From NCBI GenBank assembly GCA_965204535.1, contig CBDBEV010000001.1, positions 1 through 64,000 on the forward strand: DNA of 64,000 bases, written 5' to 3'. The notes below the pieces were generated by a model. That model saw only the letters and a program-made list of their open reading frames with translations. It was not told the origin of the DNA and ran no database searches. The DNA comes from a bacterium. GTDB lineage: Bacteria > UBA8248. Position 1 is the stretch's first letter, and every line of letters starts with the position of its first letter. The position numbers and the translations under genes are program-made. Positions 1 to 15,700 of the stretch are shown one piece after another.

Positions 1-2973
1 TCGCGAAAGAAGGCGTTCGCTCGGCAAATTGTTGTCCGAAGCCGGTCTACTCCCCACTTACGGATCCCCCGAATGGGACAAGGCAATGAAGTACGACCCC
101 TACGATCTCAGAAGGCGGGCTTTCGATGGCGCGCCTATCTCCCCGCATGAGTTCGGGAGGGCGATCTACCACCTTGCCCAGCGTCGTCACTTCAAGGGGC
201 GGGACGTCGACGAGATTTCCGATGATACCCAGACGGAGGATCGGAAAGAGGAAAAAGCGGACGCCGATGAAAAGAAAGCCAAGGGCAAGCGCGAATCAAC
301 CATAGCAATACTGAAAGACGAGAATAAGACGCTCGGCGCGTGGCTGGCGGAGCGCGGGCCGCATGAACGCAAGCGAGACGAGCATGCAACGCGAAAAATC
401 GTCGAGGATGAGTTCGAGAAAATTTGGGAAAAGCAGAAGAAGCATTTGTCTGTGCTTCAGGACGAGGAATTGAGGGACTCCATCCGCGAGGCGATTTTCG
501 CTCAACGCCCCGTGTTTTGGCGCAAAAATACGTTGGGGGAATGCCGTTTCGTCCCCGAAGCGCCCTTGTGTCCGAGGGGCGCATGGCTCTCTCAACAGAA
601 GCGGATGCTGGAGAAGGTCAACAACCTCTCGGTGGGCGGCAGCGCCCGCTGCCTCGACGCAGAAGAACGCCGGGCGATTCTCGACAAACTGCAAACGCAG
701 GCGTCCATGACCTGGAGCAGAGTTCGGGGCGCGCTCAAGCCGCTTTATGAACAGCGCGGTATGCCGGGCGAGGAGAAGCGCCTCAAGTTCAATTTGGAAG
801 ACAGTGAGAAAAAGCTCATTGGCAACCCGCTCGAAAAGAAACTCGCGGACATTTTCGGTAAAGATTGGCCAGCGCATTCGCGCAAGCAGGAAATCCGCGA
901 CGCCGTGCATGACAGACTTTGGCATGCGGATTACGGGGAAACCGGCTCACAGCGCGTAGTCATTCTCCCAGCGAAAGAACGCAAGAGGAGGCGCGCAAAG
1001 GCGGCGCATGGTTTTGTGGATGATTTCGGCGTCACCGAAGCTCAGGCCGAAAAGCTCAAAGACCTCAAGCTACCCACGGGATGGGAGCCTTATTCGGTCG
1101 CGGCGTTAAAAGCATTTTTGCCCCATCTCGAAGAGGGCGTGCGGTTCGGTACGCTGGTGAGCAGTCCTGAGCCCAAATGGGAAAATTGGCGAGAAAAAAC
1201 CTTTCCGCGAATGGAGCAGCCGACGGGCGAAATTCGGGATCGTTTGCCCAGTCCGGCGGATCCGGAGGAAAGGGCGCGCGTCGCTAAATTGCGCAATCCC
1301 ACGGTCGCGCGGGCGCGCAACGAATTGCGCAAGGTCGTCAACAACCTCATCGACAAGTTCGGAAAACCGGACCTGATCCGCGTGGAGTTGGCACGCGAGG
1401 TCGGCATGTCGAAGCGCCAACGCGAGGATATGTCGATCGGTATGAGGCGACAGGAAGGACGACGGAAAAAGGCGAAGGAAGCTCTCGAAGAAAGAGGGAT
1501 ACCCAACCCTTCGCGCGATGACGTCGAAAAATGGATGCTCTGGGAAGAGTGCGGGCATTTCTGTCCTTACACCGGAAAGGGTATCGGTTTCGAGGCCCTG
1601 TTTCACGAAAACGAATTTCAGGTCGAACACATCTGGCCGCGTTCCCGCTCTTTCGACAACAGTTTCAGAAACAAGACTCTGTGCCATAAGGACGAAATCT
1701 CAGGAAAGGCAATCACATTCCATTTGAATATCTGAGTAGCGATGAAGAGAGTTGGGATCGGTTGGTGAAGCGACTGGAAGGAATGAAGGCGACCAAGAGC
1801 GGGGTCGGCATGTCGCCGGGCAAGGTCAGACGATTTCTCGCGACTGAGATACCGGAGGACTTCGCCGCGCGCCAACTCAACGACACCGGATACGCCGCGC
1901 GCGAGGCCGTGTCTTTCCTCAGGCAATTGTGGCCGGACGCGGGACCTGAAGCACCCATGACGGTGCAGGCCGTATCCGGCCGCGTTACTGCGCAGCTTCG
2001 CTGGCTCTGGGGTTTGAACGACATTCTTGGCGAGAGCGGCAAGAAGACGCGATCCGATCATCGCCATCACGCGATTGACGCGCTGGCAGTCGCCTGTACG
2101 CATCTCGGCATGACGCAGAAGCTCTCTCGCTATTGGCAGGTCAGGGACTTACGGATCAAAGAAACCTCACACGCCCGAAAGCCGCGTCTGGAGCGGCCTT
2201 GGGAGACGATTCGCGCCGACGCGGAAAAGGCCGTCGCTGATATCGTCGTGTCGCATCGTGTTCGCAAGAAAATATCCGGGCCGCTGCATTTGGGGACAAT
2301 TTACGGCGATACCCGTAAAGACGCAGTTACCAAATCTGGAACCCACCGCTATTTCGTTACGCGCAAGAAGGTCGAAGAACTAAGCAAGAGTGATTTGGCG
2401 GATAAGAACGAAGACATGTGGCCGGATAAGAGAGTGCGTAAAATCGTCAAAGAGTGGGTGAACACTAATGGCGGAGACTCGAAAAAAGCATTTTCCTCCG
2501 GTTTTCCGCTATGCGGGCGGAACGGTCCTGAAATCCGCAAGGTGCGCTTACGAAAGAAACAGCAGTTGAAACTGATGGCGAAAGCCGGGACCGGCTACGC
2601 CGACCCAGGCGAGAATCACCACATGGCGATTTACCGCCTGCCCGACGGCGAGATCGATTTCGAGGTCGTTTCTTTGTTCGATGCGGCGCAGCGTCTGGCA
2701 AGACGCGAAGACATTGTGCGGCGCAAGCGCGAGGACGGTGCGTGCCTCATCATGTCGCTTTCAAAAGGCGACGCATTGCGGTTTCCTGACAACGACCAAG
2801 CCAAGGTGCGAATTGTCGAGAGCATTTGGGCGGCTGGCCCGGTAGTAATGGCTGACCACAACGACGCTACTGGAACGACTCGATTTCGACCTAGTCCCAA
2901 TCCTATTATAAACAGCGGCGCGAAAAAAATTTCTATCGATCCCATCGGTCGCATACGTCCAGCCAAAGATTGA
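1..2973 (+). CDS. cas9: Type II-C Cas9 (compact; 5' end outside window; split by a -1 frameshift at ~1695-1697 into ORFs 29-1735 and 1762-2973)
   Basis: HLAQRRHFK, IFAQRP, RNPTVARARNELRKVVNNLI, RuvC-II IRVELARE, HNH CPYTG..VEHIWPRSRSFDNSFRNKTLC, QLNDTGY, RuvC-III DHRHHAIDA, C-terminal IDPIGRI. Adding one A at 1695-1697 restores ENLRKGNHIPFEYL and joins the two ORFs. Confidence 0.97.
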
Positions 2974-3091
2974 ACCAGTTATAAGATATCCGCGAGATTG
3001 TAAGGAAATGGTTTCTTCCGCCCGATCGGCTGGATTTTTTTGTCGCCGATCAGGCGGAAATGGCCTTTTTTCAGTACCTTACGAAAAAGCG
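2974..3091. promoter_or_regulatory. Putative CRISPR leader / terminator hairpin between cas9 and the array
   Basis: Inverted repeat TTCCGCCCGATCGGC...GCCGATCAGGCGGAA (~3015-3059) followed by a T-run. It lies at the non-degenerate end of the array. Confidence 0.55.
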
Positions 3092-4574
3092 ATTGTAGCA
3101 AGTCGAGGGGTGGCCGCAAACCACAGTCTGCGAGCTTGCCGATTGATTCCGCGCATTATTGTAGCAAGTCGAGGGGTGGCCGCAAACCACAGTCTACCAT
3201 CACTCCGGGCTTTGCTACAAAAGATTGTAGCAAGTCGAGGGGTGGCCGCAAACCACAGTAAGATCGTGAAAAAGCATCGTGAAAACTCGATTGTAGCAAG
3301 TCGAGGGGTGGCCGCAAACCACAGTTTAGGACGGGAAGCGTAGACAACCCGATCCATTGTAGCAAGTCGAGGGGTGGCCGCAAACCACAGTGAATGAAGT
3401 TGCGCCTTCAAGCCGTCACCGATTGTAGCAAGTCGAGGGGTGGCCGCAAACCACAGTGCTCCTCGTCTTGTGGACCGCAAAGAGCCCATTGTAGCAAGTC
3501 GAGGGGTGGCCGCAAACCACAGTACGCGGCATCGAGGCTCACCTGCACCCGGTATTGTAGCAAGTCGAGGGGTGGCCGCAAACCACAGTCCAGCGTGGTG
3601 CTTCCTCATGCTCGCATCGATTGTAGCAAGTCGAGGGGTGGCCGCAAACCACAGTTGGTGCAGGTTCTTCACGCTCACGCGTCCGATTGTAGCAAGTCGA
3701 GGGGTGGCCGCAAACCACAGTTAGAATGCGTGCAGATCCACCTGCTTCTTGATTGTAGCAAGTCGAGGGGTGGCCGCAAACCACAGTGTGTCTCGAAGGA
3801 TGTGGACGACAGGAATATTGTAGCAAGTCGAGGGGTGGCCGCAAACCACAGTAAGAGTCAGGGGATTACGGAACTCAAGCAAATTGTAGCAAGTCGAGGG
3901 GTGGCCGCAAACCACAGTCATGGGCCTCTGTTGGTTATTCTTGGCCTGATTGTAGCAAGTCGAGGGGTGGCCGCAAACCACAGTCGTTTCTTCACCGAAT
4001 CACTGCCGAAAATATTGTAGCAAGTCGAGGGGTGGCCGCAAACCACAGTCCTGATCATCGAGGAGCGCTACGCCCACCGATTGTAGCAAGTCGAGGGGTG
4101 GCCGCAAACCACAGTGCTTCATTTACAGGAGCAACAACCGGATTTATTGTAGCAAGTCGAGGGGTGGCCACAAACCACAGTGAAGGAGGCGCGATGTCAT
4201 GGCCAGACGAAATTGTAGCAAGTCGAGGGGTGGCCGCAAACCACAGTATCTAAAGTATCGGCATCTACATCAAGATCATTGTAGCAAGTCGAGGGGTGGC
4301 CGCAAACCACAGTTACTAGGCGTTTTCGTATAGAATGCCTTTAATTGTAGCAAGTCGAGGGGTGGCCGCAAACCACAGTGAGCACCGCAGCGTAAGCCCG
4401 AGCTTCGCGATTGTAGCAAGTCGAGGGGTGGCCGCAAACCACAGTTCATAGGTGGATTCGCCTATAATGCCTCTAATTGTAGCAAGTCGAGGGGTGGCCG
4501 CAAACCACAGTAGCTAGACGTTTTCGCGTATGCTCTTCTCAATTGTAGCAATTCAAGGGGTGGCAGCAAACCAC
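3092..4574 (-). CRISPR. Type II-C CRISPR array: 23 repeats of 36 nt, 22 spacers (20 of 30 nt, 2 of 29 nt)
   Basis: Plus-strand repeat ATTGTAGCAAGTCGAGGGGTGGCCGCAAACCACAGT with a 66-nt period. Repeat 17 has one substitution and the last repeat (4542) is degenerate and truncated. On the minus strand the repeat ends TGCTACAAT as in Neisseria-type II-C repeats, so crRNA sense is inferred to be minus. Confidence 0.99.
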
Positions 4575-4733
4575 TCGTTGCGAAAGGCTGGATTCATAAA
4601 GGGAATCGTCATATCTTTGTGCATGGTGGCGCATCTCTTATTTACTGAATGATCGGGCTTCTGACAACCCTATTTCAGCAGGAATGCGCCGTCTTCTTCA
4701 ATTCAGCCCACACACAAGATCTGAGGGTAACTC
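4575..4733 (-). mobile_element. Left end of an IS256-like element (terminal IR plus the first ~17 codons of a putative transposase) fused to the last CRISPR repeat
   Basis: Minus strand begins GAGTTACCCTCAGATCTTGTGTGTGGGCTGAATTGAAGAAG, nearly identical to the IR at 8568. ATG at 4624 reads MHKDMTIPFMNPAFRNE and then runs into the repeat. Confidence 0.75.
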
Positions 4734-5141
4734 TGCATAAAGTTTATGCAGGACAATGACTTATTGCTCTCATAATCATTGTCAAGTGAAGTGGAACGTA
4801 GCCGGGGAATGGTCTGTATCTGTGGATAGTTCAAGTGTGTGCGATTCATCGGCAACTTTTTTCCGAGTCCTAAGTCAGGTTGCGATCGGGTGATGCTGGG
4901 CATGAATCTGTAAATTGAGCGGTGTGGTCAGTTCCCAGATGTGTCGGTACGGAAGCTGAAGGTGAATAAGTTGCTGGATCGGACTTGCGCCTAAGAGCAC
5001 CCAACGGTTTCCTCGTTGCGGGGTAGACTTGCTGGAAGCCACACAACCGAAGGCACCAGTAGTCGCAGGCGGCTCGGCGGTTCTTGTGCCAGGTCCGAAC
5101 TGGTCGGGGACACGAGCAAATCAATGCTTCTGATTTGGCAC

Positions 5142-5171
5142 TTGACACTGTAGTGTGAAGTGCACTACATT
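5142..5171 (+). promoter_or_regulatory. Sigma70-like promoter with overlapping palindromic operator for the TA operon
   Basis: TTGACA (5142-5147), 18 nt, TACATT (5166-5171). Inverted repeat TGTAGTG-N7-CACTACA (5149-5169) overlaps it. Confidence 0.7.
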
Positions 5172-5192
5172 AGCCTTGTGAAAGGGGCGGCC

Positions 5193-5501
5193 ATGTTAGA
5201 CTTTGACATATCATCAAGTTCTTCTACCAAACACACTAGAACCACGCAGGTGCGTCACGATGATCGACTAGCGACCCTGATTGAGCGTGCTGCACTGTCG
5301 CTAGCTGTGCATAAATCGGTCTTCCTGCGCGCAGTGATTGAGCGCGAGGCAATACATGTGCTTGAAGCGCAATCCCGACATGTTCTGACACCGGAGGACG
5401 CCGAGCAGTTCGCTGCGGCCCTTGATTCCCCCCCCGCTCTGACTCCACGCGCTCGGGAGGCGGCACGAAACTATCGCGCGCGCGTGGTTCATGCCGACTG
5501 A
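5193..5501 (+). CDS. DUF1778 family RHH antitoxin (TacA/AtaR-like)
   Basis: LIERAA..KSVFLR..LTPEDAEQFAAALDSPP pattern; overlaps the downstream GNAT gene. Start at ATG 5193 preferred over GTG 5160. Confidence 0.9.
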   Translation: MLDFDISSSSSTKHTRTTQVRHDDRLATLIERAALSLAVHKSVFLRAVIEREAIHVLEAQSRHVLTPEDAEQFAAALDSPPALTPRAREAARNYRARVVHAD

Positions 5502-6036
5502 AACACCTGCCCTTAGAATCGAATCTTTTGATCCAGCACGGCATGACCGCGTCGGTTTCGATTGCGGTGTTGATCGCCTGAACAACTACCTCAAGCTGAG
5601 CGCAAAGAAGCAACAGAAAGACGACATGACCCGCGTCTATGTTGTTGTCGAAGAGGGGAGCACGCGCATCCTCGGCTACCATGCGATCAACGTGGGCAAG
5701 ATGAACGTGGACGAGCTCGAGCATCGACCGCGCGGGACACCGAAGCATGGAGAGATCCCGGTGCTGTTCCTGGGACAGGTCGCAGTGGACAAGCCGTCGC
5801 AAGATACAGGTCTTGGCGGCATCCTCATGTACCATGTCTTCGAAAAAGCATGCAAGATTTCCGAAATGGCCGGTTGCCATGCAATCATCCTTGATGTCAT
5901 CTCGGATGGAGGGGAAGAAGCACTTGCGCGTCGTAGAGCGTGGTACGAAAACTTTGGTTTCACTTCCTTCTCCAGCAATCCTGCACGCATGTTCCTTGTG
6001 ATGAAACAGGTCCGCGCGGTGACTCGGGCAAAGTGA
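5491..6036 (+). CDS. GNAT family acetyltransferase toxin (TacT/AtaT-like)
   Basis: HDRVGFDCGVDRLNNYLK, ILGYH, IPVLFLGQVAVD..QDTGLG, WYENFGF. Confidence 0.92.
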   Translation: MPTETPALRIESFDPARHDRVGFDCGVDRLNNYLKLSAKKQQKDDMTRVYVVVEEGSTRILGYHAINVGKMNVDELEHRPRGTPKHGEIPVLFLGQVAVDKPSQDTGLGGILMYHVFEKACKISEMAGCHAIILDVISDGGEEALARRRAWYENFGFTSFSSNPARMFLVMKQVRAVTRAK

Positions 6037-6252
6037 CGAGAAGCGACCGCTTCGTCTTTCGTTGGTTCGGCTAGTCTGAATCGGGGACGTAAGTTGCCAA
6101 GGAGTTGAAACCCGAGAGAATCGGCATCAAGATGAGCAAAAGAAAGCTCAATAAAATCCTCATCCCCTTCAACTTCCATGGATTTCAGGACAATAGCCTT
6201 CGAAATCAATTCACGATGAGGAGGCAGGGCTTGGAGCGTTCCAAGACCGGCA

Positions 6253-7017
6253 ATGAGGAGCACGATGTTGACAGGGTTACTTGAACTTGATCGGCCCAAG
6301 GCATGGCCACCAGAATTGTGTGCATATCTTGGTGAGTATTACGATTTGTTCCTGGGGTGGGAGACCAAACAAGATAAGCCCTCCGCTTCCGCGTATGATT
6401 GTGCCCTGCAAGGATTGATGGGTATCTTACAGCCGTATGTGATCTTGGGTTGGCATTGCACGCGGATCACAGCTGCAGAAGCAGACGATATCCTACGTAG
6501 CGGCATACAAATGCCCGATGCCGCCATGCTGGAACGCCGCATCGATGCTCTTGTGGAATCCAATGAAATCGCCCCTGATCTCGCATGTCTACTCAAGAGT
6601 AAGAATCAATCGGATGAGAAGAACCGTGCTGGAAAGGTCTGGTTCTGCTTTTTTCCGCCGAGGAAGGCGGGAGAGGGGGGAATCGAACGGTTCTTCCGCC
6701 ACTGGGGAGGTGAGGCTCTTTACAATTCTCACGAGGATGATCCTGTTACGTCACCCGCTATCCGCGATGTAGGGACACCTTGCATCGTCGAGGTTGATGT
6801 GCCGGTTTCGTCACTTGCGAGACACGAACCTCTTGCTCTCAATATCGTCCGTCGATTCCTGGCCAGCCGAGACCACCGCATGACAGAGTCAACTGACTAC
6901 GAAGATCGAATAGTGCAACCGTTATCGGCTACGAATGTTCGTCGCGTAATTCGCTTTCCTGATCCGGATTTCTTTGCCCTCACGGGTTGTGCAGAATGGC
7001 GTAGGCCGATCGTATAA
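6253..7017 (+). CDS. Hypothetical protein, possible ADP-ribosyltransferase-like fold (likely start 6265)
   Basis: Clean 254-aa ORF with AGGAG before ATG 6265. GWHCTR..ILRSGI, VWFCF and late Glu residues recall the ART H-x-T strand pattern; the fold assignment is inference. Confidence 0.6.
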   Translation: MRSTMLTGLLELDRPKAWPPELCAYLGEYYDLFLGWETKQDKPSASAYDCALQGLMGILQPYVILGWHCTRITAAEADDILRSGIQMPDAAMLERRIDALVESNEIAPDLACLLKSKNQSDEKNRAGKVWFCFFPPRKAGEGGIERFFRHWGGEALYNSHEDDPVTSPAIRDVGTPCIVEVDVPVSSLARHEPLALNIVRRFLASRDHRMTESTDYEDRIVQPLSATNVRRVIRFPDPDFFALTGCAEWRRPIV

Positions 7018-7655
7018 GCCGAGGTACCTTCATGCTAGAAGGGTTTGCGTCCCGCATCGCCCTGTTTTGAATATGATTTTACTACAGGTCGACTACACTC
7101 AAGTCGCGCTCAGAAGTCGTCTTTAGGCGCGGATCGGAGCTTTTGGTATAAGTTGCGGTGTGCCGACGCATAACTCTGAACGAGCCATTGCAGGTTGAAC
7201 TATAGAGTACGACTGCTCAATAGTAGCGGTAGTGTCATGGAGTGATAATGCCGCAAGACTCAGAAGCAGTTATTAGTATGGCACTGCGTATCCGATTGGG
7301 TCGACGAATTTTTGATGCTCATAACCCTGCGACCGAACGGATACTTGATCGCTTACGACCGTAGCTCGCAGGGCTGCGCTGGAGTTATAATTCATCCGCT
7401 TTCGATTTGATTACAAGTTGCGGAAAGCAAGCCCCCAACAAAACTCGCAAAAAACAAATACCCACAACAGTTTCAACAAACTATATAGACCTCATAGCTA
7501 TTGGCTCAACCCTAACGTTTGAACCACGCGACACGGTGAATCTAGCTAGATGAAGTCAATATAAAAGATAGATCGGTGGCTCTTAGGCAAAATACAATAG
7601 GAGTCTGTCGACTGCTTTTCTGTTACAATTCGATACATTAAACAGGAGGATAGAC

Positions 7656-8501
7656 ATGGCACTTGGAGATGGAATACGAAGAAATATCGCTCATGTTTCA
7701 ACAGTAGAGCGAGTACGCTTCAGAGATGCGATTATTGAGCTCAACAGTAGATATTATCCTGACAATGTTTCGAAGTGGGTCAAGCAAGACCAAATCCATC
7801 AGGATACTTATGTTCACCACAAGCCGTCGTTCTTGCCTTGGCACCGAGAGCTCTGTAACCGTTTCGAACAGCTACTGCGAGAAGGCGATGAGGAGCTATC
7901 GCTACACTATTGGGACTGGACAGAAGATCCACGACGGGCGGGCGATGGAGCTGGTGGCACGATAGATCTGTTTACGGCGGAGTTCATGGGAGCGGCGTTC
8001 AGAAGCGTCGGGTCGCCTTTCACCGATTTTCCTGCATTTGCTCGAAAGGTGGCAGGGGGAAAAAACGCCCCTGCCCCGACTGGCACAGACACTGATTCGT
8101 CAATCATCAATTCGACGAACGGAGTTGCTCGAGGCGATCAGTGGAAGACATTCCGGCAAAAGATTGAAAGTCCTCCAAACCATGATTCGATTCACGCGTA
8201 CATAGGCGGCTCAATCGGCAATGAACACACGGCCTTCGAGGATCCGTTCGTCTTCCTGCTCCACTCCAACGTGGATCGTCTCTGGGCAATGTGGCAAACA
8301 GTGAGCGGAGAGGAATGGCGCCTCGATCCCCAAAAAATCTATGGGAACGAAGGCTCTGACTCTAACATCTTAGAGAACCTTGAACCTTGGGCAGGCGGAC
8401 GCGGTTTACGCCCTTGGGGACCGCCAGAAAATCAGCAGGTTGTCAAGAACTCCAAGCATACGACAATCGTGATACCGCCACGTTACGACACGTTGCCTTA
8501 G
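7656..8501 (+). CDS. Tyrosinase (type-3 copper) family protein
   Basis: CuA IHQ..VHH..FLPWHRE, YWDW, CuB HDSIH..GG..DPFVFLLHSNVDRLW. RBS CAGGAGG. Confidence 0.92.
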   Translation: MALGDGIRRNIAHVSTVERVRFRDAIIELNSRYYPDNVSKWVKQDQIHQDTYVHHKPSFLPWHRELCNRFEQLLREGDEELSLHYWDWTEDPRRAGDGAGGTIDLFTAEFMGAAFRSVGSPFTDFPAFARKVAGGKNAPAPTGTDTDSSIINSTNGVARGDQWKTFRQKIESPPNHDSIHAYIGGSIGNEHTAFEDPFVFLLHSNVDRLWAMWQTVSGEEWRLDPQKIYGNEGSDSNILENLEPWAGGRGLRPWGPPENQQVVKNSKHTTIVIPPRYDTLP

Positions 8502-8567
8502 CTGATCGCAACTGTATGACAGAATTGGATATTTTGCCGACCAATAAGGGGTCGCAAAGGCTGTCGG

Positions 8568-8793
8568 GAGTTACCCTCAGATCTTGTGTATGGGCGGAAT
8601 TGAAGAAGGCAGCGCTGAGCCTCGTGCATTACTCACCATGAGCGCCGAGAAGCGATGGCGCCGCCTACGAGGCTTCCGTCATCTGGCCGATGTGATCGCC
8701 GACGTGAGGTTCATCAATGGTGTGGGCGAAAAAGAAACGGGCAGGAGGGCCGCTGAATTCAGGACGGCCATACACAAGATTTGACAGTAACTC
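8568..8793 (+). mobile_element. Internally deleted IS256-family element (MITE-like, 226 bp)
   Basis: Terminal IRs GAGTTACCCTCAGATCTTGTGTATGG / CCATACACAAGATTTGACAGTAACTC. The interior encodes an IS256 transposase C-terminus (SAEKRWRRLRGFRHLADVIADVRFING). Confidence 0.85.
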
Positions 8794-8819
8794 AAAGATT
8801 CATTTTGACATAGAATAAT

Positions 8820-9278
8820 TTATTTGCTTCTCATCTTACCTGGAACTTCAATACAACCCGTTTTGTCTTGATCACAATTTGCTAAAGACAAATTTTCAAC
8901 CTTAAGACATCGACGAAGATCAGTTATAAAAAAATCCGAATAATGAGGTATTGTTCTATCTTGATTTCCCAATTCATAAAATCTAGTAGCTTCTAATACA
9001 CAACGATCAATGGCTTTTTGTTTGCTCTTAGAACAAGTCTCTTTTAAACATTCAGATACAATTACCCCTGGATGTACAGGTGCATATTTATATGAAAGAA
9101 AAATATGTAACTGCGAGTAAATTACCAGAGCACTTAAAAGTACACATATTATCCAAAACCATCTCCCCTCCTTGAAAATAAATTTGAATCCTGAAATTAT
9201 CTTATCTTTATAATTCCAAACTGTCATGACAATAAGACCTACAAAAATCCAATAAAGAAACTCAAGTATTGTTTTCAT
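8820..9278 (-). CDS. AT-rich hypothetical membrane protein
   Basis: 152 aa with two N-terminal hydrophobic segments and a Cys-rich C-terminal domain; markedly more AT-rich than its neighbours. Confidence 0.7.
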   Translation of the reverse strand: MKTILEFLYWIFVGLIVMTVWNYKDKIISGFKFIFKEGRWFWIICVLLSALVIYSQLHIFLSYKYAPVHPGVIVSECLKETCSKSKQKAIDRCVLEATRFYELGNQDRTIPHYSDFFITDLRRCLKVENLSLANCDQDKTGCIEVPGKMRSK

Positions 9279-9441
9279 TTTCTTCTCTTTTAACGTAGAA
9301 AAATTAAATCACGAATAAATATGATGGATAATAATATTATTCAGATTCTCAAATATATTAAGAAATTGCCACCTCAAAAATAAGTGAATTTTGTTAACTT
9401 TGCTTAATTAATCCCTTTATGATTCGCAGTCGAAGAGAAGA

Positions 9442-10329
9442 ATGAAGACAACCGAGGAAGCTACCAAGGGCCTTTTTGTACTGGCTGGACGGGTGCCATT
9501 GAATATTGCGCCTGAGAAAGCCGAAGAACTAGTAAAGGAGGTGTTCGGCAACGATGAATGGGAACTGCGACCAAGCCGGACTAAAGCCAATTTCTACGCT
9601 GTAGTCGAAGAGCGGGCAGTATATCTGTCGTTCGCTGGGTTAGCGAGTCTGTGGTGTCTAACATTCACTGCATATTGTGTAATGGATATTGCCTCTCGAA
9701 GTACACGTGACAATGACTTTCAGGGGTCTCAAATCGATATCAGCAATCAGTGGAACGAACTGAAGCTTGATGCTTACCTGAACTATGCCCGCCGCCTTTT
9801 CCGCGCTGATGAGCAGTGGCCGGAAGGACTCAGAGCGCCAGTAAGTGATGCAGAATTTGACTCTGTTGATGGGCGAATCAACAATCTTTTTTATGGCTCT
9901 CTAAGTTGGATTCTGCTTCACGAAATTGCTCATATTTATCACGGAGATTTGCGGTTACTGCCGGCTTCGATGAAAGTTGTGCAAGAGTTTCGAGCGGATG
10001 AATTCGCTACGAATTGGATTTTAGATAATGCTGGTTCTGGCCGTCAGCGAGAGTTTCGAGCACTTGCGATCACAGTTGCCCATGCTTGGCTCTTGTTGCA
10101 TGAGGCAACGATAGGCCGAGGCTATGACCATCCGTTGGCGTTACAACGATTTTTAGGAGCTGTAAATCAGTTGGAATTGAAAAATCGAAGCACCGCGCTG
10201 GAAAATGCCGCCTATATGCTAAAGGCGATCTTCGATCCCGAATCAGTGATGCCGACGGCGTTGTTGGCGCATGAAGCATTCGAGTGGGTGAGTAAACGGA
10301 TTGCCGAGCAGTTCAGAGAGACACATTAG
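9442..10329 (+). CDS. Lit-family (peptidase U49) phage-exclusion metalloprotease
   Basis: WILLHEIAH (HExxH), EFRADEFATNWIL and YDHP..QR motifs; ~295 aa like E. coli e14 Lit. Confidence 0.8.
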   Translation: MKTTEEATKGLFVLAGRVPLNIAPEKAEELVKEVFGNDEWELRPSRTKANFYAVVEERAVYLSFAGLASLWCLTFTAYCVMDIASRSTRDNDFQGSQIDISNQWNELKLDAYLNYARRLFRADEQWPEGLRAPVSDAEFDSVDGRINNLFYGSLSWILLHEIAHIYHGDLRLLPASMKVVQEFRADEFATNWILDNAGSGRQREFRALAITVAHAWLLLHEATIGRGYDHPLALQRFLGAVNQLELKNRSTALENAAYMLKAIFDPESVMPTALLAHEAFEWVSKRIAEQFRETH

Positions 10330-10479
10330 AAGAGTCCAATCTCTTCTATATGTACCGCTCGGTAGCCAACCGACGGGAGATTCAGTTTACTTTATTCATG
10401 AATAGTACCGCAATCAATCGTGCATTCCGAGAGTCTCGTGGCATTGAAGTCTACCTTTGGACGCATCATGTTCTGCGCG

Positions 10480-10710
10480 TTAAACTTGGCACCGCAGCAG
10501 CGACTCCAGAAAGCCCAATACCTTCCCCCGCGTCAGCTTCTTGCGGAACGCGACAGACCCGTCCGGGCGCGCCCCGTCGATTTGAAAACCCGTTTCGCCA
10601 GAGCGATCCCGAAGATGTGTAACTGTTCATGAATTCCCTTCCTGCAGGGCGGTAAACTATGTCGCCTTACCACAGTGTGATATTGCGAGGAGGGCACGTC
10701 CACCCCATCG
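10480..10710 (-). pseudogene. IS110/IS1111-family remnant (left end plus frameshifted transposase N-terminus)
   Basis: Minus strand reads IFGIALAKRV / FQIDGARPDGSVAFRKKLTRGKVLGFLESLLRC across a frameshift (cf. GIDLAK.VFQ.HG). Upstream GATGGGGTGGACG resembles an IS1111-type end. Confidence 0.75.
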
Positions 10711-10862
10711 GATACGGACAGGAACCCTCCGAGATGCGCAGGAGTTTGAATTCATCCGCTTCCGATTTGATTACTTCTTACAGAGAGCTAATTCCGATCA
10801 AGATCAAGAACCACACATATTTCTCAATAATATCAACGGAATAGCGGAATTCCCTACCTGCC

Positions 10863-10903
10863 GAAAATCCCCCACCCTCTCTAACCACGCGGGAGAGCGG
10901 GAT
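10863..10903 (+). repeat. 41-bp direct repeat, copy 1 (copy 2 at 12622-12662)
   Basis: GAAAATCCCCCACCCTCTCTAACCACGCGGGAGAGCGGGAT; 37/41 identical to copy 2. Confidence 0.9.
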
Positions 10904-11051
10904 TCGCCGAAGGTCTCGCGCCGTGATTTCGCTTGGACGGTACGCTTGATTCGGGGACCGGGCCGGTCTATGATGGAGGCCACGTTCACGAGCAGTCTGT
11001 GGACCGGAACCGTGCAGGGGATACCAGACCACCCGCCCGCAAGGCGAACGA

Positions 11052-11969
11052 ATGACCGGAGAGCTTCCCTTCGACACTTCCGATCTGGAATCGTCGGCGA
11101 TTTCCCCCTTCAGGGAGCTGGGCGCCTACGAGGCGCTCTGGAACGAGGAGGGGATGTCTTTCCGGAAACTCGCGGAAAGGCGCCGCCGGCGGCCCGGTTC
11201 CATGCTGTCCGATTTCGTGTCGAGGTCGGACGCCCGCGACTTCGCCCACCGCGTTCGCGACATGCTGTCCGAGGCCGGAATCGAGGGGTTCGGCATACGC
11301 GTGCACGGCGCGGGAGAATACCCCCTCAAGCTCAGGGATGCCGCGAACCCCGTGGAGTTGCTCTATTACCGGGGCTGGTGGGACCTGGTTCATACGCGCT
11401 GCGTGGCGGTGGTCGGCGCGAGGAAAGCCTCACCGGAAGGGATCGCGCGCACGCGCCGTCTGGTCGGGAAGCTCGTCGCCGACGATTTCACGGTTGTTTC
11501 GGGACTGGCCGGAGGGGTCGATGCGGCCGCGCACGCCGCGGCGATCGACTCGGGCGGCAGGACGATAGGGGTGATGGGAACGCCGATATCCCGGGCCTAC
11601 CCGCAAGCGAATGCGGAACTCCAGGAGCGGATCGCCGCCGGGCATCTGCTGATCAGCCAGGTTCCCGTCTGGCGTCATTCCCGGCAGGGCCCGAAGAGAA
11701 ACAGGCTTTTCTTCCCGGAGCGCAACATCACGATGTCGGCCCTCACCGAGGCGACCGTCATCGTCGAGGCCGGCGAGACGTCGGGGACGCTGATCCAGGC
11801 GCGCGCCGCGCTGCAACAGGGGCGGAAGCTGTTCATTCTCGACAACTGCTTCCAGAATCCGAAACTCGCGTGGCCCGCGAAATTCGCCGGGAAAGGCGCC
11901 GTCCGGGTCCGGGAATACAGCGACATCGGGCGGCATCTTGACGACGCTCAGACTCTCCAGGATCGATGA
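11052..11969 (+). CDS. DprA/Smf-like (SLOG) protein, ShosA-like antitoxin
   Basis: YPLKLRDA..LYYRG, VAVVGAR, VVSGLAGGVDAAAH, FPERN, IVEAGETSGTLIQAR; no C-terminal winged helix. Confidence 0.9.
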   Translation: MTGELPFDTSDLESSAISPFRELGAYEALWNEEGMSFRKLAERRRRRPGSMLSDFVSRSDARDFAHRVRDMLSEAGIEGFGIRVHGAGEYPLKLRDAANPVELLYYRGWWDLVHTRCVAVVGARKASPEGIARTRRLVGKLVADDFTVVSGLAGGVDAAAHAAAIDSGGRTIGVMGTPISRAYPQANAELQERIAAGHLLISQVPVWRHSRQGPKRNRLFFPERNITMSALTEATVIVEAGETSGTLIQARAALQQGRKLFILDNCFQNPKLAWPAKFAGKGAVRVREYSDIGRHLDDAQTLQDR

Positions 11970-12561
11970 CCTGACGCGCGGGGACCACTCGCGCCTCGAG
12001 CGTGAAGACCGGTGTTATTTCCTCGGGGAGTACACGCCGCGGGAGGGGTTTTCCTTCAGCGATACGAACGGCCTCGTATCGGATTTCAAGAAGCCGGTGA
12101 CGAAAAAAGGGAAACCCGAATGGAAATGGAAAGAGCGCGCGATCCGCGAGGTGGCGGCGCTGTTTCGGAAATCGATTCCCCTGAACCCTCTCCGGAACAT
12201 GACCCTGGTTCCCATCCCGCCGTCAAGGGCGAGAGACGATCCGGAACACGACGACCGGATGCTGCGCGCGCTCCGTCAACTCGGAAGAGGAGAGGAGTTC
12301 GACGTTCGTGAGTTGATCCTGCAGCACGAAAGCACGGAGGCGGCCCACACGAGCGCGCGCCGGCCCGGCGTGGGGGATCTCGTCGGCAACTACCGCATCG
12401 ACGAGAGCCTGGCGGAACCGCCTCCCCGAGACGTCGCGCTGTTCGATGACGTGCTTACCAGCGGCGCCCATTTCAAGGCGGCGCAAAGCGTTCTCCGTGA
12501 CCGGTACCCGGATGTTTTCGTCGTCGGGATTTTCATCGCCCGGCGCGTGATAAACAGATGA
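11938..12561 (+). CDS. ComF-like phosphoribosyltransferase-fold protein (ShosT-like toxin)
   Basis: LVPIPPS and PRPP-binding loop VALFDDVLTSGAHF; overlaps the dprA-like gene. Confidence 0.85.
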   Translation: MTTLRLSRIDDLTRGDHSRLEREDRCYFLGEYTPREGFSFSDTNGLVSDFKKPVTKKGKPEWKWKERAIREVAALFRKSIPLNPLRNMTLVPIPPSRARDDPEHDDRMLRALRQLGRGEEFDVRELILQHESTEAAHTSARRPGVGDLVGNYRIDESLAEPPPRDVALFDDVLTSGAHFKAAQSVLRDRYPDVFVVGIFIARRVINR

Positions 12562-12621
12562 TACGCCGCAGGACGACTCCGGGATGAACGCGGCGTTGCG
12601 CGCAAGGATGCCGCGCCCGCT

Positions 12622-12662
12622 GAAAATCCCCCACCCTCTATAAACACGCGGAAGAGCCGGAT
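12622..12662 (+). repeat. 41-bp direct repeat, copy 2
   Basis: GAAAATCCCCCACCCTCTATAAACACGCGGAAGAGCCGGAT. Confidence 0.9.
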
Positions 12663-12741
12663 GCGCGCCCCCTCCCGCCGGGAGGGGGGCCGCGATGAAG
12701 CGGGGCGGGAGGAACGGCCCGCGCTTCCCCCGGGTCCGCCC

Positions 12742-15700
12742 CTACCACCGCATCGAGCCCCTGAGCGCCACGCCGTGGACGGAAGCGCCCCCGTCCCTCT
12801 CGCGCAGGTCGCCCTCGAGGCTCATGGTGAGGGACTCGGCGAGCCGGAAGCGCCCGCCGGCGCGGTACGTCTCCCCGCTCCCGGTGAGGGTGAAGCCGGT
12901 GTAGGGCGTCAGGAGTCCGCCCCAGGCGTCGAGGCCCCAGCCCGCCTCGGCGTCGAAGCCCGCCACGGGGTCGAACGCTCCTCCCGCGAAGCTCCCCCCG
13001 GCCCGGGACCAGAGCCGCTCGGCGCCGCCCGCGGCCGCGCCCCAGGAAGAACCCGCCCGGAGCGTGAGGCCCCGTCCGTCCGAACCCGGCGCGTACCCCA
13101 CCGAGGCGCTCACGCCCCATTCCTCATAACCGCCGGCGCCGTGGGCGATGAGGCCGCGCGCTCTCACCTCCGCCGTCAGGGCGCCCGAGGTCCAGCGCAG
13201 GCCGCCGCCCGCCTCGACGCCCCCGCCCGTCTCCGCGTCGCCCGAATCGTTCCGGAACCCTATCTCCACCGAGGGCGTCAGCACCGCATCGCCCATCTTG
13301 TACGAGCGCGAACCCTCGAGGGCGAGCCGCACCCGGCTCGTCCCCGCTTCGGTCTCCGCCAGGCCCGCCGCGGCGTCCGAGCGCGTGTCCGTCACGAGGA
13401 CGTCCGCGCGGAGCGCGAGCTCGAACCCGCCCGGCGCCCGCGCGGGCAGGAGGACGCCGCGCGCCCCTCCCGCCGCCACCCCCATATCGAGGTCGGCGTC
13501 CATCGACTCAGCCCCCCCGGGCGTGAGCGTCATCCCGCCCGAACCCAGGCCCACCACGCCCCAGAGCGAGAACGACCCGCTCACCCGGTAGCGCGCGTAG
13601 GGCCAGACGCCCGTGAGGGTGCTCTCCACCTCGCCCGCGCAGCCCGTATCGCACGCGCCGCCCATTTTGTACGAGCCGTCGCCCGAACTCCGCGAGAGCG
13701 CCACGCCCACCAGCCAGCGCGACCGCTCGTAGTCGAAGCCCACGGTCGCCGTCGTCACGTCGCCCTCGAGCGAGAGACCGCCCCCGGCGCCCTCGAACGA
13801 GGAGCGCGCGCCCCGGCCCCACAGCGACCAGCGCGAGCCGGCGTCCATATTCTCCGCCGAGGCCATGTGAAACGAACTCGCGAGCAGGAGTTCGCTCATC
13901 GAGACCTCGCGCACCGAAGGCGCCGGCATCTCCTCGCCGCGCCCGAGACGGGCGTCCCTCTCCTTGAGCAGGGCCTCGGCGAGGCGCGACTCGATGGCCT
14001 CGCGCTCCGCCTTGCCGCCCGTGAGGCTGTGGCCGCCCAGCACGACGCCCGGGGCGGCGCCGCCCCCGATGCGCGCGCCCACCGCTTCCACCACGTTCTC
14101 CGCCGCCGTGCGCCCGAAGCGCGAGAGCCACATCCTTTGCAGCGGGTCGTCGTTCCTGATGACCCCCTTCGCCTCGCGGTGCATCTTGCGCAGATACGCC
14201 CCCTTCGGGTTCGAGAGCGTGAGCTTGAACGTCTCCTTGCCCTCGTCGACCGCGTCGTCGAGCAGCGCCACCGGGACCGTCTTCGCCGTCTCGCCCGGCG
14301 CGAAGACGAGCGTGCCCGACGCGGCCGTGTAGTCCGCCCCCGCCGCCGCCGTGCCGTCGGCCGTCGCGTAGTCCACCGACACCGGCCCCGACGCCGCCCG
14401 GCTCAGCGTCACCGCGAAGTCGAGCGAGGCGTCCTTGCCCTCCTTCGCCCGCGCGTCCGCGACCCGGATCCGCGCCGGGCCCCGGACCGTCGCCGACGCC
14501 GCGCCGAGCGCTATCTTCACGTCCTTCCAGGACTCCGGCTTGACGCGCACCCGCCACAGCACCGGGTCCAGCGACTCCACGCCCGTGACCTTCCCGGCCG
14601 TCACCTTGAACGCCTCGGGGGCGGGCTTCGAGCCCGACTGCACCTCCAGCGCGAACGCCGTCCGCCCGTCATGCTCCGCCGGGACCTTGCCGAACTCTAC
14701 CGCCACGGTCTGGGTTGCCGCCCGCGGCGTCGTCTGCTCGCCCTTCACACGGACCCACCCGCTCGAGTGCTCGCTGCGCTCCGAGCGGAGCCGGCCCACG
14801 AAGGCGCGCACGAACACCCCGGTCGCCACGCCGTTCCTCAGCCCGGTGATGGTGTAGCCGTTCACACCGGCCTCCACGGCAACGCCGTTGTTGCCCGACG
14901 GGTTGGCCCACACGCCCGCCTCCTGGCTCCAGCGCAGCGCGTGCTGCACCCGCTCCGCAGCGACGCGCGGGTGCGCCACCGCCGTCCAGCTCACCGTCAG
15001 GCTGCCGTCGCCCGGCACCACCCGCACGTCGGCCGGCTCCGGCGTGACCAACACCTCCTGCTGCTGCTGCGGACCCGCCGCGACCCTCGCACTCGACGTG
15101 TTCGACAGCGCCCGCCCGTCCGGCGTGCACACCGCGCCCGACGGCTCGTCGTCGCAGTCCCGTCCGCCCGCGAGCGTCACCGTCACGTCGCTCGGCGACG
15201 TCGGCCGCACCGTGACCCGCCACAGCCCGGCGCCGATCTGCTCAACGCCCGTCACCCGGCCCTGCGTCACCGCGAACGACCACGCGCGCGGCGACCGGCT
15301 GAAACTCCCCACCGTCTCGCTCAGACGCACCAGGATCGCGAACTCCGTGCCGTCATGCTCCTCCGGCACGTCCTCGAAGACCGCCGTCAGCGGGTCGCCC
15401 TGCTGCTCCCCGCCGGAGCCCGGCCCCTCGCCGCCCTCGAACTCCGCGGCCCCGGACCCGCCGCCGTAGGCGCTGCCGACGTTGATGTCGTACGTCACCG
15501 ACGACCTCCCCCGCGGCAGGTACACGGTGACCTGGTTTGTCATTATCTGGTTCTCCACGTCCTTCGGGACTCCGAGAAGGCACAGGTTGAACGTGGTGCT
15601 CCGCTGCCCCGCCTGGATGTAGGCCATCGGATACTTGCGATCCGGGTGCTCGTTGACCGCGCGAGTGGCCGGGTCCAACGGATCCATCGGATCGCAATGG

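Follow-up and report, generated by a model that had tools for sequence, protein, structure and literature searches.

Phage lambda is governed by CI switches, and the stoperators of mycobacteriophage L5 are dispersed operators; among CRISPR-related elements, tracr-L and CreA/CreR are regulatory guides. Regulatory mini-arrays and scaRNA target their own loci, as described in the parts of one study on which we draw (10.1101/2023.03.03.530964). In type III-A systems conditional tolerance depends on transcription, according to excerpts of two reports (PMC5754349 and PMC6990116). Here we analyze a type II-C array in which three spacers resemble one another and in which the shared core appears to be an operator of temperate phages that lies inside their promoters. 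The window, that is, the whole stretch of DNA analyzed, comprises 64,000 nucleotides at the start of a contig from a bacterium of the lineage UBA8248, which is likely sponge-associated. The features of the locus are listed in Table 1.

TABLE 1 Features of the CRISPR-Cas9 locus (positions are those of the window)
Feature	Position	Strand	Basis and remarks
Type II-C cas9	2..2973	+	ORFs; 5' end cut by the contig start; base missing near 1694
Putative leader (new-spacer) end, cas9-to-array region	2974..3091		Lies opposite the degenerate repeat
CRISPR array, 23 repeats of 36 nt, 22 spacers	3092..4577	-	crRNA on minus strand; repeat-tracrRNA duplex
Spacer 19	4314..4343	-	Operator-like palindrome 4317-4332; -10-like TAGAAT 4331-4336 (read on plus strand)
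Spacer 21	4446..4475	-	Operator-like palindrome 4449-4464; TATAAT 4463-4468 (read on plus strand)
Spacer 22, last spacer	4512..4541	-	Operator-like palindrome 4515-4530; TATGCT 4529-4534 (read on plus strand)
Degenerate terminal repeat, putative old end	4542..4577	-	6 mismatches

An intact copy of cas9, at C1:200516 in the same genome, encodes 1056 amino acids with RuvC_III, HNH_4, and Cas9_a domains identified by Pfam. The base missing from the window's copy is present in the contigs of all four public runs, one of which is labelled as a sponge metagenome, so an assembly error is the most likely cause of the gap. Cas9 is probably intact, and the repair called for by the original prediction is probably needless, as the frameshift is absent from the contigs of all four runs. 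The system has the components of type II-C: a cas9 with RuvC and HNH domains, a tracrRNA with an anti-repeat, and cas1 and cas2 without csn2 or cas4. In the C1 copy cas1 was identified by Pfam, cas2 is the ORF that we take to encode it, and there is no space for a further gene between cas1 and cas9. The gene order is cas1-cas2-tracr-cas9-array. The tracrRNA lies upstream of cas9 in the second genomic copy, on the minus strand from C1:200465 to about C1:200351, and the predicted energy of its duplex with the repeat is -48.3 kcal/mol. The pairing of a minus-strand tracrRNA with the minus-strand repeat fixes the direction of the crRNAs as minus, just as had been predicted.

The locus is part of an element of about 32 kb that, in the C1 copy, carries two tyrosine integrases, a TrwC relaxase, an SSB gene, and a Mutator-family transposase. 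This CRISPR-Cas9 block occurs twice in the genome: C1:183067-215427 matches the end of C2 plus the start of C2 at 99.6 to 99.9% identity, with about 2.9 kb absent at the C2 junction of the second copy; the two copies may reflect a true duplication or have arisen in assembly. The C2-side copy consists of the end of C2 and positions 1-14714 of the window. A third, partial copy (92.7%) is found at C2:345481-355406. The CRISPR-Cas9 system rides on an integrative, mobilizable element, and its old spacers may come from another host. Several other features of the element and the genome were recorded. A TacA1 antitoxin and GNAT toxin pair lies downstream of the array (window 5142-6036), and its predicted promoter, with TTGACA at 5142, holds an inverted repeat of its own that is unrelated to the spacers. 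Cargo genes at window 7656-12561 include one with a tyrosinase domain, a peptidase U49 gene, and a DprA-like SLOG gene, which adjoins an ORF with no Pfam match. The host has a second Cas9 (C2:2097881-2101231) with another repeat type and only 3 spacers. An Rfam search of positions 1-12000 of the window gave no match.

The degenerate terminal repeat marks the putative old end of the array, which is why spacers 19, 21, and 22 are read as old; they are likely three of the four oldest spacers. By eye, a stretch like the putative leader also precedes the array in genome G001. Contigs of runs X1-X3 cover spacer 22 without differences. In the run contigs the first repeat is joined directly to the one that precedes spacer 22, which is probably an assembly collapse; such a collapse leaves spacers 1-21 without cover from the runs, a result that is uninformative either way.

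The three spacers had been seen to align without gaps, and on recount their coordinates, sequences, and identities were exact: 21/30 for spacers 19 and 21, 17/30 for 19 and 22, and 14/30 for 21 and 22. Among the 231 spacer pairs of the array the modal number of matches is 8. The next best unrelated pair reaches 15, so the 14/30 of spacers 21 and 22 is unremarkable alone. In shuffled arrays a best pair of at least 21 matches never occurred (0/5000), and one of at least 17 occurred in 245/5000. The positions invariant across the three spacers are TAG at 4-6, G at 9, TTCG at 12-15, TA at 18-19, T at 23, and A at 30, and a triple with 12 invariant positions appeared in 1 of 1000 shuffles. The shared TAG, TTCG, -10-like hexamer, and A30 noted originally are therefore real, but G9 had been overlooked, as had an imperfect palindrome at positions 4-19. 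In this palindrome, TAGGCG-N4-CGCCTA, 13 of the 18 arm pairs are complementary; taken alone, the symmetry is weak evidence (P = 0.047 in column shuffles). None of the six half-sites of the three spacers differs from TAGGCG at more than two positions. The guides fold on themselves only modestly (-3.5 to -6.2 kcal/mol; z from -0.03 to -1.7), which is possibly a minor reason for weak activity.

A first search pattern for viral contigs, built from spacers 19 and 21 without a -35 element, matched four contigs. Two of these, G066 and G067, are phage genomes of some 63 kb with repeated copies of the palindrome next to a CI-like repressor gene; in G066 the copies surround both a repressor with HTH and peptidase S24 domains and a divergent small HTH gene. 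Four further phage contigs (G072 to G075) were picked from the matches of a palindrome scan. The numbers of palindrome copies, compared with those of a reversed-pattern control, were 13 versus 1 in G072, 6 versus 1 in G073, 9 versus 2 in G074, and 2 versus 0 in G075; at 2 mismatches they were 15 versus 10 in G066 and 14 versus 6 in G067. In a nonphage bacterial genome the numbers were 49 versus 42. Five of the six viral contigs counted had 6 to 15 matches each.

A scan with the palindrome only gave 61 sites in 59 loci. TTG was found 9 bases before the TAG in 18 of the 61 sites (9 per side), four of them near-copies of one sequence, and at any other offset in no more than 6 per side; TTG was absent from the search pattern. 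The layout TTGNNN-NNN-operator-(-10) was present in 14 of 23 sites from G067, G072, and G074, and 13 of the 14 have an ORF downstream in the fetched piece. This phage layout sets TAG at positions 4-6 and TA at 18-19 after the -35 hexamer, which is the register of the spacers. The three spacers had been described as promoter look-alikes with a -35 box expected just upstream, and in the matching phage element TTG stands precisely where it had been expected; the palindrome often occurs there as TTGACA-NNN-operator-(-10). The shared core is likely a repressor operator inside the promoter and not a generic sigma70 promoter.

Starting from the repressor instead, we found 26 loci, 20 of them new. An operator site lay at most 500 bp upstream in 9 of the 20 new loci, and two or more lay there in 8; the 8 most distant repressors had no site. 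A palindromic motif was derived de novo from 12 of the 20 loci, the 8 distant repressors without a site having been dropped after that result was seen. The consensus tested was a 16-bp palindrome, WAKGCG-NWWN-CGCMTW, to which spacers 19, 21, and 22 conform. On the de novo motif spacer 19 scored 17.3 bits (1/20000 shuffles as high), spacer 21 scored 14.5 bits (7/20000), and spacer 22 scored 13.4 bits (5/20000), each at offset 4. They were the top three of 290 spacers. The runner-up, at 9.5 bits, was another spacer of the same array, and the best scores elsewhere were 8.7 among 218 spacers from other Cas9 arrays of relatives and 4.2 among 50 spacers from repeat-related arrays. Because the operator family was reached starting from the spacers, a selection effect partly remains in these scores. 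Offset 4 and the -10 element are present in all three spacers, and the position of the -35 element falls outside the spacer.

The phages with these sites (L291 to L308 together with G066, G067, G072, and G074) are temperate, 62 to 67 kb long, and have a conserved CI-like repressor and dispersed, paired operators. The paired operators are about 31 to 32 bp apart, and one pair lies directly downstream of the repressor gene. The closest repressors of named cultured phages are only 31 to 33% identical, and the named relatives are mostly from Mesorhizobium-type hosts. From the co-occurrence of palindrome and repressor gene we infer that the palindrome serves these temperate phages as a dispersed operator, which their CI-like HTH-S24 repressor would bind. 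The half-site variants TATACG and TACGCG occur among the natural operator sites. The best identity of the spacers to a TTG-register site of the repressor family was 18 to 21 of 30. The phage promoter core is mostly A-rich (AAAA in 16 and TTTT in 3 of 40 sites), whereas the spacers have TTTT or GATT. One marine phage site with TTG upstream is identical to spacer 19 at 23/30 positions, most of these matches having been forced by the search pattern; by eye, the site is flanked on one side by a tRNA-like end and on the other by an operon that includes an integrase-like ORF. The same operator-in-promoter layout was seen in low-GC marine phage fragments (L286 to L290), again next to a tRNA-like end and with a variable operon, ending in an integrase-like ORF, on the other side; cultured phages gave no match to these fragments.

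No protospacer was found for any spacer of the array, the other 19 included, and hence no PAM could be read from it; an attempt with a related array gave chance matches only (20 to 24 of 30). Related enzymes served for comparison. In the portion of the PMC7606464 supplement used here, the PAM of Ghh2 is NNNCAC and that of Cme4 is NNNCAT. Excerpts of two papers give the PAM of Parvibaculum lavamentivorans Cas9 as NNNCAT (PMC6859307), which agrees with the NNNCAT-like PAM originally named, and as NNNMAT (PMC8990532); a Parvibaculum PAM is not named in PMC7822910. The C-terminal 204 amino acids of the Cas9 studied here are 54% identical to those of a Parvibaculum sp. Cas9, and the repeats and tracrRNAs of Ghh2 and Cme4 are similar, by eye in the printed rows, to those of the array. 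The P. lavamentivorans, Ghh2, and Cme4 enzymes have CA at PAM positions 4 and 5, the same core as predicted here, but their sixth base is T or C rather than the A or N of our reading.

The operator reading predicts a PAM of NNNCAA or NNNCAN, and NNNCAA, which is the -35 box reversed, is plausible. The original prediction had placed this PAM on the -35 side; the side fits and the related PAMs make the sequence plausible, but the relatives tested end in T or C. When all possible protospacers covering the operator at 69 sites were enumerated, offset 4 accounted for 40 of 92 with a TTG PAM, 44 of 139 with NTG, and 1 of 28 with ATG, and with TTG it was the modal register. The common register of the three spacers would thus follow from a PAM that is the -35 box read backwards. 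If operator targeting is granted, the shared register leaves little more to explain.

Searches for the true protospacers of spacers 19, 21, and 22 found none in viral contigs, where several matches were chance or coding, nor in metagenome and genome contigs (spacers 19 and 21 only), phages and plasmids, 42 genomes of the host's family, 401 genomes of another class, or five operator-bearing phages. In the host genome outside the arrays, no site lay within 8 mismatches of any of the three. The longest exact host seeds with TG at the PAM position were 7, 10, and 9 nt for spacers 19, 21, and 22, respectively, and around the promoters of cas1, cas9, and the toxin-antitoxin genes no site with a compatible PAM matched more than 8 of 12 seed bases. 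Spacer 21 has a 14-nt seed match at C2:2240732, which lacks TG at the PAM position and matches 16/30 overall. The best operator-like site in the host, at C2:2516591 (23.9 bits), has no TTG at -9 on either side. This site adjoins a transposase-like ORF, presumably of the IS1595 type, and after it comes a stretch with long terminal inverted repeats and an atypical tRNA-like gene (49 bits in Rfam); the region (C2:2516591-2516894) is possibly the remnant of a mobile element.

The HTH-S24 repressor of the operator family had no match in the host genome at E <= 1e-5 and only one weak match among 51 genomes, and no prophage with such operators was seen in the relatives. The host does have a phage-type HTH-S24 repressor amid metabolic genes (C1:1173306-1174040), a domesticated CI-like regulator to which 39 of 51 genomes in the class have a match. 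It was rejected as the binder, having no conserved palindrome of this kind upstream. By eye, no such site was seen in the region upstream of lexA. Operator sites on genome G015 were also rejected, as they are on repeat-rich, eukaryotic-looking contigs; these contigs (C7 and C41, loci L154 to L157) are rich in microsatellites and are probably bin contamination. The remaining motif matches in relatives were mostly coding.

Among spacers of other Cas9 arrays the operator pattern was found in 0/401 (218 from other arrays of relatives and 183 from repeat-related arrays, ten genomes). One of the 218 scored 11.2 on the first matrix, but at offset 3. The operator pattern rests on one array. Conservation in related arrays had been proposed as a check; spacers 19, 21, and 22 were absent from G001, from G014, and from the 183 repeat-related spacers, a comparison that includes few close arrays. 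Two of the 183 (L342 in G328 and L343 in G162) lack the operator but carry TAGAAT or TATAAT in the same register, at positions 18-23. In another array of the same repeat clade (L282, G238:C105) the last two spacers are alike at 24/30 positions in register and do not match this operator; a search of five genomes gave no target for them. Some arrays of relatives contain exact duplicates of a spacer, and in G014 a one-spacer remnant of the window's repeat type (C1:426344-426435) directly follows an array of the other repeat type.

The spacers match the repressor palindrome in its promoter register, so such switches are their likely source. Taken over both readings that assume it, an origin in phage operator-promoters is quite probable. 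Repeated capture of phage promoters had been one of the original suggestions, and the matching phage element supports it. With moderate confidence we favor the account in which spacers 19, 21, and 22 came from three early promoters under repressor control, in one or more temperate phages, and serve as ordinary cutting guides. By sequence, the palindrome lies between the -35 and -10 elements of several dispersed promoters in the phage family, where the repressor would bind it. If there are about 8 promoters and about 2,470 TTG sites per 65 kb, and if all 22 spacers came from such a phage, the probability of capturing three at random is about 5e-5; three of 22 is far above random capture, and selection is implied.

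That the selection was survivor bias in a lysogen is a tentative suggestion. Most spacers derived from a prophage would kill the lysogen; a CI dimer bound at positions 4-19 would hide the greater part of the seed, so that spacers of this kind would escape autoimmunity, and the guides would fire only once the repressor cleaves itself at induction. The phage would escape such guides poorly, as the PAM falls in its -35 box and the operator contains most of the seed, and this would also help the spacers to be retained, an argument weakened by the free variation of the three PAM-proximal bases. Since the host now has no such repressor or prophage and no such prophage was seen in the relatives, the lysogeny would have been historical or in an earlier host. 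A repressor-gated tolerance in which Cas9 spares the dormant prophage and cuts at induction, aided by a PAM that is the reversed -35 box, is a more doubtful proposition.

The same origin would also suit protection mainly by silencing, in which Cas9 covering the region from -35 to +1 blocks early phage transcription when cutting fails; this is the main rival, though we think it unlikely. Cutting might fail through target drift or a cleavage-only anti-CRISPR, and it is equally unlikely that promoter-anchored spacers were kept on account of continuing to work under such conditions. The guides do span from just below the -35 box to about +1, and excerpts of one study describe both repression of a targeted promoter by Nme1Cas9 inhibited after DNA binding and trapping of II-C Cas9 in an inactive state by AcrIIC1 (10.1101/2021.07.09.451512). 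However, the Cas9 here has its nuclease domains and appears intact, and the three PAM-proximal bases differ among the spacers, which consequently cannot serve as generic repressors of the whole phage family. The two repeat-related spacers with a -10-like hexamer at the same positions point toward silencing, but by a rough estimate 2/183 is close to the number expected from random capture at a TTG PAM. Capture from some other repeated phage, plasmid, or integrative element, with the likeness to the operator due to convergence or to our search route, is rather improbable. It would fit the failure to find a real target, the best identity of 18 to 21 of 30, and the similar spacer pair in G238 that does not match the operator, and an array on an integrase and TrwC relaxase element could well target rival elements. 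Against it, independent lines concur (the de novo motif, the offset, and the predicted position of the -35 box), and the half-sites, all six close to TAGGCG, include differences of the kind seen in the natural variants TATACG and TACGCG.

The original prediction had also considered retained CRISPRi-like guides against promoters of the host (cas9, cas1, or toxin-antitoxin genes), in the style of tracr-L, scaRNA, or CreA/CreR. A TacA1-GNAT pair does follow the array. Partial-match regulatory guides are common, according to the parts used of 10.1101/2023.03.03.530964. The seed match of spacer 21 and the strong operator-like site in C2 might be counted as targets, but the former lacks the PAM and the latter the TTG. 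PAM-compatible seeds in the host are short, the cas and toxin-antitoxin promoters offer no site, and the spacers sit between normal repeats and were not kept in relatives, so that this reading is very improbable and the claim did not stand. That the three are diverged duplicates of one ancestral spacer is hardly credible, despite their being neighbors at the old end and despite the exact duplications seen in relatives: they differ at 9 to 16 positions, the operator-defining positions are spared, and the four repeats at 4278 through 4476 are free of mismatches, which makes a common ancestor unlikely. It is just as hard to believe in chance, or in a protein motif (FAY in one frame, for instance) that makes the spacers alike at the codon level. 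Spacers 21 and 22 do read FAY in frame 3, and some of the chance database matches were coding, but spacer 19 has a stop in that frame, the mismatches have by eye no clear third-position bias, and the shuffle tests argue against chance.

A literature search, outside of which most subscription journals lay, found no description of the operator consensus or the repressor clade, no paper on a bacterial repressor shielding DNA from Cas9, and no report of operator-biased Cas9 spacers. At the least, then, an operator and repressor family of temperate phages for which no earlier description was found is outlined here, together with a Cas9 clade whose probable PAM, the -35 box, would yield promoter-derived spacers in one register. 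The literature compared links conditional prophage tolerance to CRISPR types that depend on transcription. If occupancy by a protein gates Cas9, it would be an overlooked way for DNA-targeting systems to coexist with prophages, and operator-biased spacers, if this is true, would be a genomic signature that can be searched for across all arrays.

The phage family resembles the lambdoid CI and L5 stoperator systems in having an HTH-S24 repressor and promoter-overlapping palindromic operators in several copies per genome, and it differs from them in an operator consensus and a repressor clade for which we found no description. Mini-arrays, scaRNA, tracr-L, and CreA/CreR guide a Cas effector to a promoter region, as is proposed here. 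Those guides are conserved, exist as stand-alone or degenerate repeat units, and partly match the promoters of their own cas or cargo genes; in contrast, the spacers in the window are ordinary ones within the main array, have no host target, and only the repeat after spacer 22 is degenerate. The likeness to type III conditional tolerance would be that a spacer matching a prophage is harmless while the prophage is repressed and becomes active at induction. The gate would differ: in type III it is transcription of the target, read by an RNA-binding complex, whereas for the II-C Cas9 we propose that it is occupancy of the DNA by the repressor.
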